Shown here one piece after another: positions 29,246 to 63,599 of a stretch of 64,000 nt of DNA. The translations under genes and the position numbers were made by a program. Source of the stretch: a virus; IMG/VR virus record IMGVR_UViG_3300045988_112172, one strand, 5' to 3'. Below the pieces are notes generated by a model. The model was given only the letters and a program-made list of their open reading frames with translations, was not told where the DNA came from and ran no database searches. Every line of letters starts with the position of its first letter. Within the stretch, counting starts at the first letter, position 1.

Positions 29246-30265
29246 TCATCGTTTTATCTTTTTAGACGGATCCCAATCCGAAGAGAAAGGGCATTCGTTT
29301 TTGTTATGTAATCCAAAGTCACAATAATAACACAGTGCTGACGGGCAGGGTAGCTTGTTTTGCGAAACAGGCTGGCTTAGGGTGGCACGCCTCTTGCTAT
29401 ACCTGGTTCCTTCTGCTCCCTGGATGTATGCTTGAAATGCTTTTACACTATTATCTTCAAAATCATACATTTTAGACAAAGTGTCATTTAGCATCTCTAT
29501 AGATTTTGTTTTACGTTCCTCATCTACCTTAACCTTTTGGTACTGTCTGGTCCTGGTAAAGAAATAGATGTTCATATCTGGCAGAACTCCGCCATATCTT
29601 CTATAGATGTAAAATGAATATATAGGATGCTGTAAATTTGTTTCCAACTTCTTAGAGTCAAAAACCTTATTACCGGATTTCCAATCTATGACATAATGGT
29701 GAACTACGTTCTTGCTTTTTATAGCCAGATGAAGGTCTACCGATCCTACTATGTACACATGAGTATGAACGGTCCCATTTATATCAACAGGCTTAGGAAG
29801 ACGGTACGGCAGCACAAAATCTTCTTCGACTCCAACTATGGCGCCGTGTCTGATAAGTTTCTCGCAGGGATTAAGATCACTATCAGCTATCATAAACCTA
29901 TTGCCGTCTTTTTTGAACAGATCCACAATCCAAGCAAGAAGTTCCCCAGATTGCTTCATGGCCATCATCATATTTTCCGGTGATTGCCAAGGTATGTCCT
30001 CCTGGTAAGCATAGTAACTTATCGCTTCTCCAAGGTCTTTACCAGAAGGCTGTCTTCCGTTCTTAAAAAAGTATTCCAGTGTCTTATGGATAACCGTACC
30101 ATAAGACGTAGCTTCTTGTTTTTCCGTAGACCTTTTGCCCTCTACGTAAGTCTTATACCATTTCATTGGACAGGTAAGAAACGTATCTATCTGGGAATAA
30201 GATATGGCAAGACGTTTCACACCATTAAACTCCTTATATAGCAAATGCGTTTCCGGGACCATCAT
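29246..30265 (-). CDS. PD-(D/E)XK nuclease, Cas4/RecB-like, with a C-terminal Cys cluster (339 aa)
   Basis: VGSVDLH ... VIDWKSGN (motif II/III-like D ... D/ExK pattern) and a C-terminal CPSALCYYC ... C cluster, as seen in Cas4/AddB-type nucleases. Confidence 0.6.
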   Translation of the reverse strand: MMVPETHLLYKEFNGVKRLAISYSQIDTFLTCPMKWYKTYVEGKRSTEKQEATSYGTVIHKTLEYFFKNGRQPSGKDLGEAISYYAYQEDIPWQSPENMMMAMKQSGELLAWIVDLFKKDGNRFMIADSDLNPCEKLIRHGAIVGVEEDFVLPYRLPKPVDINGTVHTHVYIVGSVDLHLAIKSKNVVHHYVIDWKSGNKVFDSKKLETNLQHPIYSFYIYRRYGGVLPDMNIYFFTRTRQYQKVKVDEERKTKSIEMLNDTLSKMYDFEDNSVKAFQAYIQGAEGTRYSKRRATLSQPVSQNKLPCPSALCYYCDFGLHNKNECPFSSDWDPSKKIKR

Positions 30266-30639: not shown

Positions 30640-31152
30640 TATTCGTATGTTTTAATACATCCCCTCGGAGACCTTTCGGTCTCCTTGGTAGATGTAAATC
30701 CCGTTAGGGATAAGTCAGGATTTCTCCTGTAAGTACCCATCGCCAATGTTATTTAAGGTTTTGAATAAGCAACACTGTTCCTGAATACCAGAACTGTTTA
30801 ATCACTTACCTTAGAGCTACAGACTTGGGCAAACATCCGTAGGTAACTATCTATTCTTAAATAACGTAGCCTTTGTTTCAAGGCTTAGGCTAATAACCCG
30901 ATCTCTTAAAGAGATGTATTAAACTTTTATAATAGAATTATATTGGTTTAATACTATTTGGGGTTATAACACTGATCATAATGATTGGTCAGTTCTTCTG
31001 GTTCTAAATCTTGTCCAAAATCCATGTTAAAAATATCGTAATTAGTAAAGCACTAAAAATCACTATTCCTGCTGGCATGAAATCTATAAATGCTGCTTTT
31101 GCTTCTTCAATTAGGCCCAAGTGTAACCTTGGGCCATTGTATTTATTTTTTG
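30640..31152 (+). ncRNA. candidate structured noncoding RNA (about 500 nt), antisense to the flanking gene block
   Basis: A 530-bp stretch with no ORF of 60 aa or more on either strand, inside an otherwise gap-free gene block. It is GC-richer than its surroundings. It has several perfect hairpins (GGAGACC-tttc-GGTCTCC, CAGGA-tttc-TCCTG, ATCTCTT-aa-AGAGAT, AGCCT ... AGGCT). It ends in a canonical plus-strand terminator (8-bp stem ggcccaag / cttgggcc at 31114-31135, followed by attgtatttattttttg). Confidence 0.4.
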
Positions 31153-32843
31153 TCATCTCCTTTTAATTTCTTTAAAGTATCTGCAATCGGAAGCTGATCA
31201 ATGACTCCCAATGCCGGAGCGACGGTCTTGACAACATTGTTAAGGAAATTACCGGTACTGTTCTGACCGCCGTCAAATACCGTGATATTTCCGAGATTAA
31301 TGTGCTCAAATGCTTTAACCTGTTCTCCAGCAATTTCTTTCCACTGATTAACCATCTTGTACTGGATGGCGATCTGAGGATTGGATTCTGCTGCTTCCAC
31401 CATAGCCTTAAATCCGTCGGCTTCTGCCATCAACGATTTTTTCTTACCTTCGGCTTCTGCCTCCAGCTTCATCTGAATAGCTTTTGCCTCCGCCTCAGCT
31501 TTTGCCAAATGTGCTGCTGCCTCTGCCTCAGCCCGGCGTTTGATCTTCTCTGCCTCAGCATCAGCTTGCAAGATAGCCTCTTCCTTCTGGGTTTCAGCCG
31601 GCACAATCTTTTCAGCCTTAAGCGCAGCCTGAACTTTCTTAGCCTTAGCTTCTTCCACTTCTTTATCAGCAAGCTCTTTTGCCGTTTTTACAGCCGCTTC
31701 CGATTTAACTTTTTCTTCTCCGGCCTTCTTTTCTGATTGAGCTTTGATAATCTGTAGTTCTGATACTGACACAGCAACCTCCTTCTGGGCATTGTTGTAT
31801 CCTATAGACGCATTTTTCTCAGCCTCAGCCTTCTTAATCTGAGCTTCAGAGTCTTGTATTGCTATAGCTGCTTCCTTGTCAGCTTCAGCCTTATTCTTTC
31901 CGACTTCTTCCATCCTTTCAGCCTCGGCTTTATTTACTTCAAGTTCTGCCTTAGATCTTACAATCGCCGATTCCTTGTCGGTTAAAGTTTTTGCGATAAC
32001 CGCAGCCCTGTCTCTATCTGCTTGAGCTACGCCGATCTGTTTCTCTTTATCGGTTAAAGCCAAGGCTATTTCTTTTTCTTTCTTCGTTTCAGCTACTATC
32101 GTTTCCTTTTCTTTTTCAGTACAAGCAATTTGAATCTCTTGTTCTTTTTTGGTATTAGCCACAGCCGTTTCTTTCTCCTTCTGCTGTACAGCAATCTTAA
32201 TAGCACCCAGCTTCTCCTGCTCTTCGATATTAGCTTGTGCTTCGTTCAGAGCCCTACTTTCAGCCTCCTTACCAAGGTTCATAATATAACCTGCTTCGTC
32301 TCTGATGTCACTGATGTTGATGTTCAGGAGGTAAAGACCTAACTTGTTAAGCTCGTTATCAATGTTCTTTCTTGCCTTATCCAAAAACTCATCCCTGTCA
32401 GAATTAAGTTTTTCGATTGTCATTTCAGCAATAATCAAACGCATCTGACCGTAAACGATGTCCGTAATAAGATTTTCAGTAGATTCGGTATCCATCCCCA
32501 AAAGTCTTTCTGCCGCATTTTGCATGATTTCGGGATTTGTACTGATAGCTACTGTAATGGTCGTAGGTACATCTACTCTAATATTCTGAGATGACAAAGC
32601 ACCGGTAAGCTTGCAATCTATTTGCATAGGCTCCATTGACAAAACATCATAGCTTTGAATAATAGGCAAGACGAATGCCGCTCCACCATGATATAATTTC
32701 GCCGACTTCTTTTCCCCACCTGTCTTACCGTAAACGACCAAGACCTGATTAGGCTTACATCTACGATACCTTGATAAGACTCCGATGATTGTCAAAATAA
32801 TCACTACAGCTAAGATAGCTGACACGTACATGATTGTTGTCAT
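31143..32843 (-). CDS. flotillin-like SPFH/band-7 domain protein (566 aa)
   Basis: N-terminal transmembrane helix, then an SPFH-like domain, then a long Ala/Glu/Lys-rich coiled-coil (EAEAEKIKRRAEAEAAAHLAKAEAEAKAIQ) characteristic of flotillin (FloT/YqiK type). Confidence 0.75.
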   Translation of the reverse strand: MTTIMYVSAILAVVIILTIIGVLSRYRRCKPNQVLVVYGKTGGEKKSAKLYHGGAAFVLPIIQSYDVLSMEPMQIDCKLTGALSSQNIRVDVPTTITVAISTNPEIMQNAAERLLGMDTESTENLITDIVYGQMRLIIAEMTIEKLNSDRDEFLDKARKNIDNELNKLGLYLLNINISDIRDEAGYIMNLGKEAESRALNEAQANIEEQEKLGAIKIAVQQKEKETAVANTKKEQEIQIACTEKEKETIVAETKKEKEIALALTDKEKQIGVAQADRDRAAVIAKTLTDKESAIVRSKAELEVNKAEAERMEEVGKNKAEADKEAAIAIQDSEAQIKKAEAEKNASIGYNNAQKEVAVSVSELQIIKAQSEKKAGEEKVKSEAAVKTAKELADKEVEEAKAKKVQAALKAEKIVPAETQKEEAILQADAEAEKIKRRAEAEAAAHLAKAEAEAKAIQMKLEAEAEGKKKSLMAEADGFKAMVEAAESNPQIAIQYKMVNQWKEIAGEQVKAFEHINLGNITVFDGGQNSTGNFLNNVVKTVAPALGVIDQLPIADTLKKLKGDDKK

Positions 32844-59419: not shown

Positions 59420-59549
59420 CCTGTCTTGCGACCTCGGAAGGGCATTTCCGAGTTGGAAAGTACGGGTGATTCCAACGATTGTAAAACCGGGGGTTCCGTA
59501 CGTTTGTATCCAAGAATCCCGTTTGCTTTAGCGATGGGAGTATGTCAAG
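59420..59549 (+). mobile_element. solo remnant of the IS605-family tnpB 3' end plus right end (omega-RNA/reRNA-like scaffold), related to tnpB copy 2
   Basis: About 80% identity over roughly 105 nt to 15628-15732 (tcggaagggcatttccga[a/g]ttgga ... gttcc[a/g]tacgtttgtatccaagaatccc ... gggagtatgtcaag). The only coding potential is a relic of the TnpB C-terminus (RKGISELES.G.S); no tnpB body is present. Confidence 0.65.
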
Positions 59550-59651
59550 CATTATACAAATACAAAGAGCGCATACCTTCACAGGCCGGCGCTCCTTTCA
59601 ATAAAAATGAAAAAACTAATATTACATAAACATATTGTTTTCTACTCTTTA

Positions 59652-59885
59652 TTACAATACTTTTGTTCCGCAATTATTATATCTTCCGTACTCTTTTTTC
59701 GTATCATTCAAGATTTCAAAAACCATCTTCTTGTGATCTTCGTTTGGTAACCTATCCTTAACAGCCGATATTACGCCCACTATAGACGTAAAGCCTGAAT
59801 CTGTTATTGAACACAGCAACACGCCTCTGTCGGCTCCGGTGCTTATTGCTGACGCCTTTATAATATCATTCTTATATATTCTCAT
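59652..59885 (-). CDS. hypothetical protein (77 aa)
   Basis: ORF whose start lies 21 nt downstream (in minus-strand sense) of T-arm-like motif 1. Confidence 0.45.
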   Translation of the reverse strand: MRIYKNDIIKASAISTGADRGVLLCSITDSGFTSIVGVISAVKDRLPNEDHKKMVFEILNDTKKEYGRYNNCGTKVL

Positions 59886-59906
59886 AACTTTTTTGTTTTA
59901 TTGTTT

Positions 59907-59985
59907 GTGAGATGCCCAGAATCGAACCAGGACCGGCACATACGCACCGGCACGCCGCGTCATCCCCCTATATGATACAGAAATA
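59907..59985 (-). other. tRNA-like element 1 (T-arm plus acceptor-3'-like motif; cloverleaf not confirmed)
   Basis: The minus-strand sequence reads ...CCTGGTTCGATTCTGGGCATCTCAC, a T-stem-loop with the TTCGATT loop. I could not pair a canonical 5' acceptor strand by hand, and the only candidate gives a roughly 61-nt molecule. Confidence 0.3.
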
Positions 59986-60061
59986 GGCATGCCTATCCTC
60001 ACGAACCGACATGCCAAAACCCAAAACTTAATTTGATGAATAAAATAGATTAACAAAAATA

Positions 60062-60376
60062 CTATTCTAATTCTTTTATAATATCTTTCACAATATTCAG
60101 CCTTACCTCCTTCGTTTCTGGACTAAGACAACCAAACCACCCATAAAACGTTCTTGTTTCCTCTGGTTCTGTGGCCATACTTATCTTCTCCTCCAATTCC
60201 GGGAAATATATTCTCACCATTTCGTCTGAACGAAACTCATAGATATTTTTATGTGTTTTGAAATACATAAACACTACATTTCTTAACGCAACACATATGT
60301 ATTCCCCATCCTCTAACCTATCAATCATCTCATATACCTTTTTCCATATGAATAATCGCTCTTCTTTTGTAAACAT
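60062..60376 (-). CDS. hypothetical protein (104 aa)
   Basis: ORF. Confidence 0.45.
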   Translation of the reverse strand: MFTKEERLFIWKKVYEMIDRLEDGEYICVALRNVVFMYFKTHKNIYEFRSDEMVRIYFPELEEKISMATEPEETRTFYGWFGCLSPETKEVRLNIVKDIIKELE

Positions 60377-60384
60377 ATCTTTCT

Positions 60385-60732
60385 TTATTTTTGTGGTATT
60401 ATTTGACTGTATGCAGACTTTTCCATGTACACAACACTATGCTCCTGTCCAAGTATTTTCTTTGCTGCCTCTTTCTTTATCGCACAATATCTCCCTGTAC
60501 GATACGGATTCTTTTGATCTGATCCATCCTCAACTTCGATAATAAAACAACCTCCGTCATCTATTATCTTTTTGCAATTGTCACATATTTCTCCCGTGCA
60601 TATATGATGCGGCGCCTGCCCTTTGATGTTATTCCCTAATAAAGCAATCCCCATCTCTTCACCGCATACTATGCATAGTTCTATGGATGGATTCAACCCA
60701 TGCTCTGGATGCAATACAATACCGTCTTTCAT
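60385..60732 (-). CDS. zinc-ribbon protein (115 aa)
   Basis: CIVCGEE ... CTGEICDNC. Confidence 0.45.
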   Translation of the reverse strand: MKDGIVLHPEHGLNPSIELCIVCGEEMGIALLGNNIKGQAPHHICTGEICDNCKKIIDDGGCFIIEVEDGSDQKNPYRTGRYCAIKKEAAKKILGQEHSVVYMEKSAYSQIIPQK

Positions 60733-61133
60733 TTTCTATCCTCATTTATTAATTCTATTATAAACTTTTTATCTTGTTCCCACAATGGCAGCCCTTCTTT
60801 TACTGTGTATGCCACTGTTTCCCTCTCTCCTATTAATCGCACGGCAATCTCTCTTGCTTTCAAGTCATCCTCCTCATGCGATTTGTTTATTAAATCATAG
60901 GCACATGATTCCACCTTTTGCCTTTCGATTATTATCGAACCCATTAACTCGCTTATATGCGATCCTAAAAACGATAAGACATTAATAGCTTTCCCAATAT
61001 CATTTGAAATAGCACTTGCTAAATACATCTTATCCATATACTCCGGCAAAGCCTCGTATGCCGTTTCTATGTTTTTATACTGATTTTCGTTTACCTCCCT
61101 TTTAATCAGTTCTTCAAATTCTTCTTTTAACAT
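60729..61133 (-). CDS. hypothetical protein (134 aa)
   Basis: ORF whose start lies 23 nt downstream of T-arm-like motif 2. Confidence 0.45.
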   Translation of the reverse strand: MLKEEFEELIKREVNENQYKNIETAYEALPEYMDKMYLASAISNDIGKAINVLSFLGSHISELMGSIIIERQKVESCAYDLINKSHEEDDLKAREIAVRLIGERETVAYTVKEGLPLWEQDKKFIIELINEDRK

Positions 61134-61156
61134 GTTCTTCCCTATTTTAATGTTGT

Positions 61157-61245
61157 GTGAGATCGCCGGAATCGAACCAGCCTACCGCACCATGAATCCC
61201 ATAAAGCAAATGCTCCGATCTTCGCAGATGGGAGCATTCTGTCTA
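61157..61245 (-). other. tRNA-like element 2 (T-arm plus acceptor-3'-like motif; cloverleaf not confirmed)
   Basis: Minus strand ...GGCTGGTTCGATTCCGGCGATCTCAC. Upstream of it is a perfect 8-bp hairpin AATGCTCC(14 nt)GGAGCATT. No canonical acceptor closure found by hand. Confidence 0.3.
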
Positions 61246-61801
61246 AAGCATAAGAAAATTAATGAAGAAATTTTTCTCACTTACGCCATAGCATCTAAAA
61301 TAGCTATCAGCACTATTTCTATGACAAACATAATAGAAAATATCTTAAATGCCTTTTTCATATCGCTATCTCCTCCTTTTTATTTTTTTAGTTCCACAAT
61401 AAACTGTTCCGGCTCTGCTCCGAACTACGTTCCACCTACAACCGCAGGCCTTAGCCCAAGGCGCCGCCTACTCCCCCTCTATGGCAGCCTGTTCGTACCT
61501 ACAAATCCAGTCTCCTTCCATACAACTATCACTACGCGATAACAAACATGTATCTTTATAACAATCATAAAAAAATACATCTCTCACAACTGTAATCCCT
61601 AATTTCTACACAGCTAACTACCTTAGCATATACTATTCCATCACTGCCTTCTATTCCTCTTACCCCAAAAATAGAACCTTCTCCCTCCTTACTCAAATCT
61701 AAGTCAGGCGCAAAGTCATATACGTTCATGTTGTTTATGTTTTAATTGTTATACATTCCGATTACTACTAATCTATAGAATATAGTTTTCAACTCTCAAC
61801 C

Positions 61802-61922
61802 TATTGAATTTTGTTGAATAAACTCACATTATGCCGTTTTAAAGCACTGATCTGTTGAATTTTGTTGGATAAACTCACATTATGCCGTTTTAAGGCACTG
61901 ATCTGTTGAATTTTGTTGGAAG
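61802..61922. repeat. 51-bp tandem repeat, 2.4 copies, noncoding
   Basis: t[a/g]ttgaattttgttg[a/g]ataaactcacattatgccgttttaa[a/g]gcactgatc at 61802, 61853 and partially at 61904. The overlapping 67-aa ORF is probably a translation artefact of the repeat. Confidence 0.7.
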
Positions 61923-62442
61923 GAAGTGCCCTCCCTCTCCCCAACCCCGGCTGATCCTCCGACTTTCTGCATAGAAACTGCGCTCTCGGCCTCACTACAG
62001 GCATACGGAGAGCGTTACAAGCTTATACTATGGCATGGGATATGGGGTATTTAGAGATAATATCATTCCATAGAGAGAATAGAGAGCCTTCAGCCCACGC
62101 CCTACCGCCTGCTCCTCCTATCAAGATAGATATTTAAGCCTATAATCAAAGCCAACAAAGAAAAGCAAAAAGCCATTACGATATTATACTGATCCGGTCC
62201 GTACTCCAACATAGAACGAATACCAACCGACAGAAAATACAAGTCAGCTACTAATAAAAACCACAACATAAAATAAAAAAAATACAATAAGTATATCCGA
62301 AAATACGGGGATTATAAAACCTAACTAATTGATAATCAAGCATACATCATTTTTAAGAAAAATACAATAAGCCTAATTTTCAATCCATAGAGACGAAAAA
62401 GGCGGCATCCGACGCCCTATTTTGGGTCAGAAAACCGCCTAA

Positions 62443-62535
62443 AGTTTCGTTTTAGACCAATTTTAACGACATGATATAGACAAAATACCGGCATTATATC
62501 CGAATACTCCTATTTTAGTTTCGTTTTAGACCAAT
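62443..62535. repeat. 19-bp direct repeat, two copies 74 bp apart
   Basis: agtttcgttttagaccaat at 62443-62461 and again at 62517-62535. Confidence 0.6.
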
Positions 62536-62640
62536 ATAGCTCACATCCGCCGTTCACTCTCAGAATATTCTACCCGTAAATAGAAAGAGTAGGATACAAA
62601 AATAGGGCTGCTCCGATATTCGAAACAACCCTATTCATAT

Positions 62641-62847
62641 TTAAATACTGTTTATATTTTCCTTAACGTACGTTCGTGACGTATGAACCTTACGTTTGCA
62701 TTTGTCCTTTCCTGTATCGGCATGATACGCTTCTTTAAGATCACGATACAGCATAAATTCACGATACGCTCTTTTCCGCTTTTCTTTAGCTTCTTTCCTG
62801 GACAGACCGCGGACGTCTACCATATGAGATTTAAATTTCCCTTCCAT
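62641..62847 (-). CDS. small basic protein (68 aa)
   Basis: Lys/Arg-rich ORF. Confidence 0.35.
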   Translation of the reverse strand: MEGKFKSHMVDVRGLSRKEAKEKRKRAYREFMLYRDLKEAYHADTGKDKCKRKVHTSRTYVKENINSI

Positions 62848-62880
62848 TTTCTTTATGCTTTAATTATGATTAACTCCAGC

Positions 62881-63054
62881 GGTTAAGTGCTTCGATATAG
62901 AAACCTTCCGCCTCTTTGTACTCACTTTCGCTCAATGTTTCCACCGTCTCGATATAGTTACGCAATGTTATTTTTACGCAACTGTTTTTAGATTTATTGA
63001 ACGCTTCAATTAAAGCGTTGATCATTGCTTTCTTTTCCATGCTATTATATTATT
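62881..63054 (-). CDS. small protein (57 aa; MEKKAMINALIEAFNK...), below the ORF-track cutoff
   Basis: Clean ATG-to-stop ORF that starts 24 nt downstream of T-arm-like motif 3. Confidence 0.35.
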
Positions 63055-63063
63055 TGTAATTTA

Positions 63064-63135
63064 GAGGTTGCTCCGGAATCGAACCGGACACGCATTCCTA
63101 CCCTGTACGAATTTTATGCTACAACCAACAGCCCG
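63064..63135 (-). other. tRNA-like element 3 (perfect T-arm TCCGG-TTCGATT-CCGGA; cloverleaf not confirmed)
   Basis: Minus strand GTCCGGTTCGATTCCGGAGCAACC. A 5' acceptor can only be paired with a 1:72 mismatch, and that would leave no D-arm (about 64 nt). Confidence 0.3.
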
Positions 63136-63599
63136 TAATTAGTACGTAGTTCTTGTGTACAGGCCCGTACTATGTTGTTATTATATTTTCCGTCTGCTAC
63201 ACAATTTAGCCACAAATAAAGGCGATTGTGTCCTTGCGTTTTGATATAAGATGCTCCTACATGATAGGTTACATGCTCATACCCTGTAATTTAATCTACA
63301 GCCTTGTCCTATTTTACGTGTAGGCAAGTAAGACACGTTCCCGAACGGAGACAAACCTCGTACAACGGTATATTTTCTAAACTATACTCACATACCTAAC
63401 ATAAACCATACCTATTCGGATAGTCCATGCAGTAATACCGGCCCTTTAATTGCCAACGGCAAGGGCAATGGTATATCTATCTCCAATATGTAAAATAACT
63501 CTCTGTTTTGTCAGCTTCAGTCTAAAGCATACGCGGGACGTGCACCCACCAACAACGGCGTACAGACGCGTTTAAAGGTACGCGCCCAACCTTGTTTTT

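Follow-up and report, generated by a model that had tools for sequence, protein, structure and literature searches.

The 64,000-nucleotide (nt) stretch of viral DNA in IMG/VR record IMGVR_UViG_3300045988_112172, referred to here as the window, contains three short elements (A, B, and C) that resemble the acceptor stem and T-arm of a tRNA and that precede minus-strand genes between positions 59907 and 63127. Over positions 59600-63300, the window shares 93% identity with crAssE-Sib (OR575929), a 151-kb phage from the human gut that belongs to the Epsilon crAss-like phages (proposed genus Epsilonunovirus; PMC11054128), and on this sequence comparison it is itself assigned to an Epsilon crAss-like phage. 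The plus strand of the window corresponds to the plus strand of the OR575929 record; window position 62558 matches the end of that record, and window position 62559 onward matches record position 1 onward. Because the record end is the terminus predicted by PhageTerm (PMC11054128), all three sites lie 0.5-2.7 kb from the predicted genome terminus. They are embedded in a long block of minus-strand genes, mainly small hypothetical open reading frames (ORFs), and PHROG and Pfam scans of the proteins encoded downstream of the elements assigned no function.

Three T-arm units in a minus-strand gene block

The sites share the motif GGTTCGATTCYGG, which occurs exactly three times in the window, always on the minus strand (63085-63073, 61178-61166, and 59928-59916), as the original prediction had stated. 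With up to two mismatches allowed, five matches were found against 1.74 expected, a count reached in none of 100 shuffles; the two further inexact matches (14344, plus strand; 47587, minus strand) lack a T-arm-like stem. The 26-nt intervals given in the original prediction proved accurate, each comprising a T-arm, a 3' acceptor strand, and a discriminator, and the ATCTCAC that it noted in two copies belongs to B and C. The next minus-strand ATGs lie at 63040, 61133, and 59885; the latter two had been placed correctly, whereas the first had been put at 63054. Counted from the GG of the motif, the ATG follows after 45, 45, and 43 nt; counted from the starts of the predicted intervals, it follows after 49, 49, and 47 nt. 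The claimed fixed spacing is thus near-constant, but the quoted 44-46 nt should read 47-49 nt from those starts. The spacers are A-rich, as had been reported.

Each motif forms a canonical T-arm with a 5-base-pair (bp) stem, a UUCGAUU loop, and a G53-C61 closing pair. Directly after each T-arm come a 7-nt 3' acceptor strand and a discriminator C, reproducing the tRNA succession of 5-bp T-stem, UUCRANY loop, 7-nt acceptor strand, and discriminator, and a matching 5' acceptor strand lies 13-32 nt upstream. The resulting units measure 64 nt (A), 45 nt (B), and 61 nt (C) and contain neither a D arm nor an anticodon arm. Acceptor pairing is complete in B (7/7) and reaches 6/7 in A and C. The earlier failure to pair a 7-bp acceptor stem is therefore superseded, since stems of 6-7 bp exist, although no space is left for D and anticodon arms, as had been argued.

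Element A (63064-63127, minus strand), which is supported by its predicted structure, its pairing variants, and an alignment to tRNA-Cys, begins with the 5' acceptor strand UGGUUGU (63127-63121). An insert of 32 nt, which contains a small hairpin, separates this strand from the T-arm UCCGG-UUCGAUU-CCGGA (63088-63072), which is followed by the 3' acceptor strand GCAACCU (63071-63065), the partner of UGGUUGU, and by discriminator C63064. Variants carrying ACAACCA form 7/7 Watson-Crick pairs against UGGUUGU; an alternative 5' strand, GGGCUGU (63134-63128), is less supported. Element B (61157-61201, minus strand), identified by pairing across variants and by the fold of its majority variant, consists of the 5' acceptor strand UGGGAUU (61201-61195), a 13-nt linker, the T-arm GCUGG-UUCGAUU-CCGGC (61181-61165), the 3' acceptor strand GAUCUCA (61164-61158), and discriminator C61157, and its acceptor stem includes a G3:U70 pair. 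Element C (59907-59967, minus strand), for which pairing across variants, the fold, and tRNA-Ala-like ends provide the evidence, also has a G3:U70 pair. Its 5' acceptor strand GGGGAUG (59967-59961) is followed by a 9-nt linker, an inner 8-bp hairpin (59951-59932) that is deleted in a few genomes, the T-arm CCUGG-UUCGAUU-CUGGG (59931-59915), the 3' acceptor strand CAUCUCA (59914-59908), and discriminator C59907.

Two of the elements are preceded by conserved minus-strand hairpins. Hairpin B (61209-61238; AAUGCUCC...GGAGCAUU, with inner AUCU-GCGA-AGAU) shows compensatory A-U to G-C variants and a nucleotide diversity (pi) of 0.029; it is followed by the U-rich UUGCUUUA and ends 7 nt upstream of element B. 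Hairpin C (59986-60015; GGCAUGUC...GGCAUGCC) lies upstream of element C and is likewise followed by a U-rich stretch, UAUUUCUGUAU. Elements B and C have 35 nt in common at 80% identity. The minus-strand stretch 59898-60056, which covers hairpin C and element C, equals OR575929 148558-148716 and is annotated in GenBank as WOZ57404.1, a 52-amino-acid (aa) "hypothetical protein". Its reading frame is subject to 1-nt changes in G-run length and to a 20-nt deletion in related genomes, so WOZ57404.1 is probably no real gene.

On the other side, a short minus-strand leader connects each discriminator to a start codon. Leader A (63041-63063) is 23 nt long, A/U-rich, and runs to the ATG of a 56-aa ORF (63040-62870); leader B (61134-61156), also 23 nt, runs to the ATG of a 134-aa ORF; and leader C (59886-59906), A-rich and 21 nt long, runs to the ATG of a 77-aa ORF, or measures 20 nt where an alternative MEVITF gene follows. 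Across unique contexts, the leader spans 20-23 nt for A, for C, and for B in front of an MLKEEF gene, and 29 nt where a 115-aa-type (MKDGI) gene directly follows B. At least two alternative genes follow each element, and one B element carries a C-type cassette, indicating that the elements coincide with module boundaries. The 5'-leader element considered in the original prediction agrees with this location and with the 20-23-nt spacing.

As the original prediction had found by hand, none of the copies folds as a canonical tRNA: ARAGORN, run with default settings on the whole window, returned no tRNA and no transfer-messenger RNA (tmRNA), and an Rfam search of 59500-63500 at E<=10 gave no tRNA match. 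The space between 5' acceptor strand and T-arm is only 13, 29, or 32 nt and the hairpin loops are 3-4 nt, which rules out a canonical tRNA gene; a minihelix of this kind leaves no space for D and anticodon arms, so that a cloverleaf cannot be built and tRNA finders fail. ARAGORN was also run with relaxed, mitochondrial, and intron options. With -ps70, which lowers its score threshold to 70%, it called A and C as weak 64-71-nt "tRNA-Thr" amid evident false positives, and in intron mode it invented a tRNA-Val; neither result is credible. The only Rfam match at the sites covers 17 nt of T-arm (9.8 bits), and a tmRNA was rejected given the lack of an ARAGORN call, an internal tag ORF, pseudoknots, and an encoded CCA. 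A YrlA or other Y RNA was also rejected: 59500-63500 holds no YrlA match at E<=10, the elements have no Ro-binding stem, and the Ro60-like gene rsr is not adjacent. Literature searches found no description of such elements.

Pairing, strand specificity, and variation

For element A, the minimum free energy (MFE) structure is the proposed fold (z = -2.28), and for the majority population variant of B both the MFE and the centroid structures are the proposed minihelix. In the MFE structure of C, the acceptor stem and inner hairpin are retained and the weak T-stem is lost. When the three paralogs are compared over the 12-bp coaxial helix, 93.4% of cells are paired against 76.6% in shuffles (0/500), and pairing falls to 38-61% when the partner strand is slid; 6/12 pairs have changed on both sides. 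A generic scanner for T-arm plus acceptor stem is non-specific (26 matches against about 22 in shuffles), although the three G/C-rich UUCGAUU arms stand out from its output. Across a whole crAssE-Sib-type genome, other good T-arms occur only in six real tRNAs and one YrlA-like RNA.

Many pairs of the helix are G-U, and it can form only on the sense strand of the genes. The opposite DNA strand cannot form the same helix, each G-U becoming an A.C mismatch, an observation that bears on a hairpin-type virion promoter of the N4 kind, in which a template-strand DNA hairpin precedes a primary transcription start. This confinement argues for a signal in RNA rather than in double-stranded or template-strand DNA, and it bears on the possibility, quite unlikely in our judgement, that the elements act as DNA: as an early promoter, for example of a virion-packaged RNA polymerase (RNAP), or as a boundary cassette for recombination of early-gene modules. 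Such a role would fit the position of each element, flanked by a terminator-like hairpin on one side and the start of a gene on the other, for terminating hairpins would demand a promoter there; it would also fit the 35 nt shared by B and C at 80% identity, the two or more alternative genes behind each element, and the single B/C recombinant. Early promoters of the crAss-type virion RNAP are, moreover, undefined; in phi14:2, no common early-promoter motif was detected for this enzyme (bioRxiv 10.1101/2020.03.07.982082). Against it, besides the mismatches on the other strand, the loop varies just as a tRNA T-loop does, and a conserved complementary 5' strand at variable distance has no promoter role. 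Recombination at the elements may simply follow from their sequence similarity and is still compatible with an RNA function. The promoter put forward in the original prediction accordingly finds no positive support: G-U-rich pairing is available only on the transcribed-sense strand, and the T-loop stays within tRNA rules.

A related idea, in which the T-arm minihelices are early start signals for the injected crAss-type virion RNAP or dual promoter-and-processing cassettes, appears very unlikely; if it held, hairpin, element, and leader would together constitute a mobile "early cassette" of Epsilon crAss-like phages. A scan for the Bacteroides-type -7 box (TAnnTTTG) found none between any element and its ATG, and a sigma-70 promoter scan is uninformative, the host being a member of the Bacteroidota. 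TAnnTTTG boxes do lie 20-35 nt ahead of many start codons in the window (41674 and 36572 on the minus strand; 15751, 14061, 11185, and 7076 on the plus strand), a pattern compatible with promoters for the host RNAP and with a host in the Bacteroidota. Another such box, at 60061 on the minus strand, is located upstream of hairpin C, between a 104-aa ORF and the hairpin.

Variation was followed in 77 related IMG/VR contigs gathered via the 134-aa protein and in a further 119 stretches gathered via the B/C signature; all IMG/VR matches from both sets belong to the same lineage, as does the diverged locus L204, in which the cassette is swapped. The lineage's hairpin B and element B are also carried by NZ_DXLG01000138.1, a 3.9-kb contig of a "Veillonella sp." metagenome-assembled genome (MAG), probably a phage contig mis-binned into that MAG. 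Within families, paired cells amount to 87-100% per helix in A, 100% in B (10 variants), and 96% in C (17 variants), compared with 27-58% after the partner is slid by 1-3 columns. Within a family, stem changes alter one side of a pair at a time, with G-U as the intermediate. Of those in the acceptor and T stems, about 15 preserve pairing and 2 break it (binomial p=0.001 under a null of 0.5, by our own count). Population variants of the T-loop are G57 to A, U59 to G, and U60 to C, with U55 to C as a singleton; tRNA T-loops tolerate this pattern, in which G57 may become A and positions 59 and 60 are free.

Nucleotide diversity across the 77 genomes separates the helix from its surroundings. It is 0.024 in the T-loops, 0.030 in the acceptor strands, and 0.029 in the hairpins upstream of B and C, compared with 0.028, 0.020, and 0.069 at codon positions 1, 2, and 3, 0.080 in the leaders, 0.089 in inserts and linkers, and 0.103 in a 0.9-kb non-coding stretch of the same region. 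The T-stems are diverse (0.070), yet their changes preserve pairing. Polymorphic sites make up 8/63 positions in T-loops and acceptor strands and 183/554 third codon positions (Fisher p=0.0008). T-loops, acceptor strands, and upstream hairpins are thus constrained like codon positions 1-2, which shows purifying selection on the helix.

The low diversity of T-loops and acceptor strands argues against neutral decay, and it makes unlikely an otherwise simple explanation, namely that the elements are functionless, decaying tRNA pseudogenes that have lost their D and anticodon arms and owe their ATG spacing to a compact genome. Much would suit such decay: A clearly derives from tRNA-Cys by scrambling, none of the three elements is accepted as a tRNA by ARAGORN or Rfam, folding z-scores are unremarkable, the elements are restricted to one lineage, the inner hairpin of C can be deleted, and a real tRNA lies at a similar distance from the next ATG. 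Decay should nevertheless be uniform, and diversity in inserts, leaders, and third codon positions exceeds that in T-loops and acceptor strands by a factor of 2-3 (p=0.0008). Changes in the stems preserve pairing, and the same two arms have been retained independently in all three elements.

tRNA ancestry and surroundings of the elements

Element A aligns with the tRNA-Cys of the phage over its first 13 nt and last ~35 nt, including the trailer CUCUAAA, whereas its region corresponding to the D and anticodon arms is unrelated to tRNA-Cys. The ends of element C, GGGGATG...CATCTCAC, recur in a real tRNA-Ala from the genome scan; as RNA, C starts with GGGGAUG and ends with CAUCUCAC, identical to the genuine tRNA-Ala. 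Element B shares with tRNA-Ala a GGGAU/AUCUC core and the G3:U70 pair. From these end similarities, the elements are judged to be remodelled tRNA genes, with A as a remodelled copy of the phage's own tRNA-Cys and B and C as carriers of a tRNA-Ala-type acceptor stem. Taken with the selection described above, the sequence comparisons point to tRNA-derived, selectively maintained acceptor/T-arm minihelices that are not tRNAs. Two further suggestions of the original prediction can be assessed accordingly. Degenerate or non-canonical tRNAs are right as to origin but not as to function, given that units with no anticodon arm cannot decode; remnants of tRNA 3' ends are an incomplete description, since conserved 5' acceptor strands are present too. 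The observation itself is real, and its interpretation is partly supported.

The related genome OR575929 has six real tRNAs, none of which lies within the window. Its tRNA-Met/Gln/Arg/Cys cluster is directly preceded by a hairpin and U-run, and 17 nt separate the end of the genuine tRNA-Cys from the next ATG. Real tRNAs and the elements hence share one layout, in which a hairpin is followed by a tRNA-shaped unit, a short A-rich leader, and an ATG. The fixed spacing, which had been taken to favour a promoter or 5'-leader element, is no evidence for a promoter when the genuine tRNA-Cys has a similar leader. None of the six phage tRNAs (0/6) has an encoded CCA, so endonucleolytic 3' trimming is required anyway.

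Outside the window, OR575929 encodes a Ro60-like protein (Rsr; 73091-74725) and a candidate YrlA-like tRNA-mimicking RNA (72601-72705; 28.5 bits, E=0.0035, under the gathering score), which, with tRNA-Tyr and tRNA-Lys, sits just upstream of rsr. On sequence grounds, rsr and this candidate appear to form a phage-borne Ro/Y-RNA module.

The tRNA-like ends could alternatively serve RNAs released as 45-64-nt, CCA-tailed molecules acting in trans, a role that we regard as unlikely. As decoys or sponges, such RNAs might sequester host factors that bind tRNA or defence toxins that target it, or they might be alanine-accepting minihelices mimicking the tRNA-like domain of tmRNA. RNase P, the CCA-adding enzyme, and alanyl-tRNA synthetase all accept acceptor/T-arm minihelices as substrates, and B and C combine G3:U70 with a tRNA-Ala-type acceptor stem. 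GG in invariant parts of the linkers could imitate the D-loop, and the phage carries a tRNA-related set comprising six tRNAs, Rsr and the YrlA-like RNA, a polynucleotide kinase, and NrnA. The discriminator, however, is C and not the A73 of tRNA-Ala and tmRNA, the 1-72 pair is U-A or a G.A mismatch, and G3:U70 is missing from A and lost in some C variants. In addition, ARAGORN finds no tmRNA, the Rfam matches are confined to 17 nt of T-arm, and action in trans leaves the fixed short distance to start codons unexplained.

A T-arm with a 3' acceptor strand is also the usual core of an attP that targets a tRNA, and crAssE-Sib is reported to have repressor and anti-repressor genes (PMC11054128). 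It is nonetheless extremely unlikely that the elements are attP-type fragments, that is, 3' parts of host tRNA genes used for site-specific integration. A scan of 185,579 species genomes, made with the B/C signature only, gave 56 matches against about 70 expected by chance (an estimate), most of them within coding sequence; no tRNA of a gut Bacteroidales was among them. The authors of the crAssE-Sib study found no integrase (PMC11054128), and the three copies differ, each with a conserved 5' acceptor strand.

Several other features surround the elements. A terminator-like hairpin with a U-run (62598-62632, minus strand) closes the two-gene unit after A, just before the terminus equivalent at 62558. 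The motif CGAAnAUCGGAGCA (minus-strand sense) recurs in three hairpins, at 61211-61224, 61416-61429, and 62609-62622; these include hairpin B and the terminator after a 68-aa ORF, and the motif resembles a repeated terminator/hairpin module. A hydrophobic 26-aa mini-ORF (61281-61361, minus strand; MKKAFKIFSIMFVIEIVLIAILDAMA) is conserved in L204 and is preceded by an AGGAGG-like sequence, unusual in a Bacteroidota phage. The minus-strand stretch 61730-62640 spans ~0.9 kb and is repeat-rich and mostly non-coding, with short doubtful ORFs. It holds a 51-nt tandem repeat of about 2.3 copies (61801-61918), a perfect 19-nt direct repeat (62443-62461 and 62517-62535), a strong terminator-like hairpin (62418-62399), and the position (62558) of the crAssE-Sib PhageTerm terminus; many IMG/VR contigs terminate 0.7-1.0 kb upstream of the 134-aa gene. 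This stretch may serve in packaging or replication, or it may encode a long non-coding RNA as in phi14:2.

Elsewhere in the window, the minus strand encodes a 566-aa protein with SPFH/Band-7 and flotillin domains (31143-32843; Pfam E=7.6e-26 and 2.1e-9) and contains a full-length match to HEARO RNA (30729-30967; RF02033; 112.9 bits, gathering score 83; E=1.7e-22), the omega-RNA that accompanies IscB/IS605-type elements. Downstream of this match, the next large ORF (29246-30265) is a PD-(D/E)XK nuclease, not IscB, and the match may represent an orphan or degraded element.

A possible role in transcript punctuation

With a probability of roughly 0.45, the explanation that we favour is that RNase P and RNase Z cut the elements as tRNA-like punctuation signals, by analogy with the t-elements of plant mitochondria. 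RNase P gauges pre-tRNAs by their acceptor/T-arm helix, and the same helix is enough for T-loops to be modified, for CCA to be added, and for enzymes of the RNase Z type to cleave at the 3' side. The elements would be transcribed within minus-strand phage messages, in which host RNase P would bind to the acceptor/T-arm helix. Its cleavage on the 5' side of the helix would leave the upstream message with the conserved hairpin as a protective 3' end. An RNase Z-type tRNA 3' endonuclease would then cut after discriminator C and free the downstream message with its 20-23-nt A-rich leader. Such a short leader would suit Shine-Dalgarno-independent initiation in Bacteroidota.

Plant-mitochondrial t-elements act as RNase P/RNase Z cleavage signals that create the 5' and 3' termini of mRNAs (Forner et al. 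2007, PMC1920247). Like these and the tRNA-like elements of haloarchaea, the phage elements are tRNA-derived and non-decoding, combine an acceptor-like stem with a T-arm, and adjoin mRNA ends; the stem forms on the sense strand only and lies 20-29 nt upstream of start codons. They differ in belonging to a Bacteroidota phage rather than to an organelle or archaeon, in being shorter (45-64 nt), in the pairing of two of them with a conserved upstream hairpin, and in that their cleavage is a prediction. In the tRNA punctuation of mitochondrial polycistrons and of phage tRNA-mRNA units, a tRNA-shaped unit likewise stands between coding units, but the punctuating units described here are not functional tRNAs.

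Other tRNA-like RNAs share parts of this architecture. The tRNA-like domain of tmRNA and tRNA-Ala minihelices also consist of an acceptor stem and T-arm and have no anticodon arm, and B and C share their G3:U70 pair; unlike tmRNA, however, the elements contain no mRNA-like ORF, pseudoknots, or encoded CCA, and their discriminator is C. YrlA, a bacterial Y RNA with a tRNA-like module, is another encoded tRNA mimic with a canonical T-arm, from which the elements are distinguished by the lack of a YrlA match, a Ro-binding stem, and adjacency to rsr. PeSLs in the hyperplastic regions of T4-type phages are repeated cassettes of promoter and stem-loop. They too are repeated intergenic stem-loops that flank small, variable early ORFs at points of module exchange, whereas the phage element is tRNA-shaped and no promoter was identified with it.

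Several observations weigh against punctuation by cleavage and against parts of the structural model. The comparative data come from one shallow lineage with effectively three deep paralogs and few independent covariation events; with all relatives in the same lineage, deep covariation is unobtainable. Folding energies of B and C match those of shuffles (z about 0), and the B variant of this window has a competing pairing as its MFE structure, although that pairing is destroyed in the commonest B variant. Shuffling gives p = 0.41, 0.066, and 0.49 for the acceptor complementarity of A, B, and C, respectively, and about 0.013 jointly. The 5' acceptor strands were picked by complementarity, a choice of which the T-stem covariation is independent. 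In four diverged genomes, the overall identity of element B does not exceed that of neighbouring genes, because the linker and wobble positions vary. A more distant phage, in which a homologous gene stands in a divergent context (L200), has no such element. Cleavage, and the enzymes responsible for it, we infer entirely. Finally, if hairpins B and C terminate efficiently, there would be few read-through precursors to process, and a promoter would be needed instead.

The early gene expression of crAss-like phages is poorly understood. The elements lie at points where early-gene cassettes are swapped between genomes, and they are of practical concern for annotation, in that tRNA finders miss them and one is entered in GenBank as a hypothetical protein of 52 aa. 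If RNase P and RNase Z do cut them, a very abundant group of gut phages would use remodelled tRNA genes as punctuation, a strategy that is known from organelles and has not been described for crAss-like phages.

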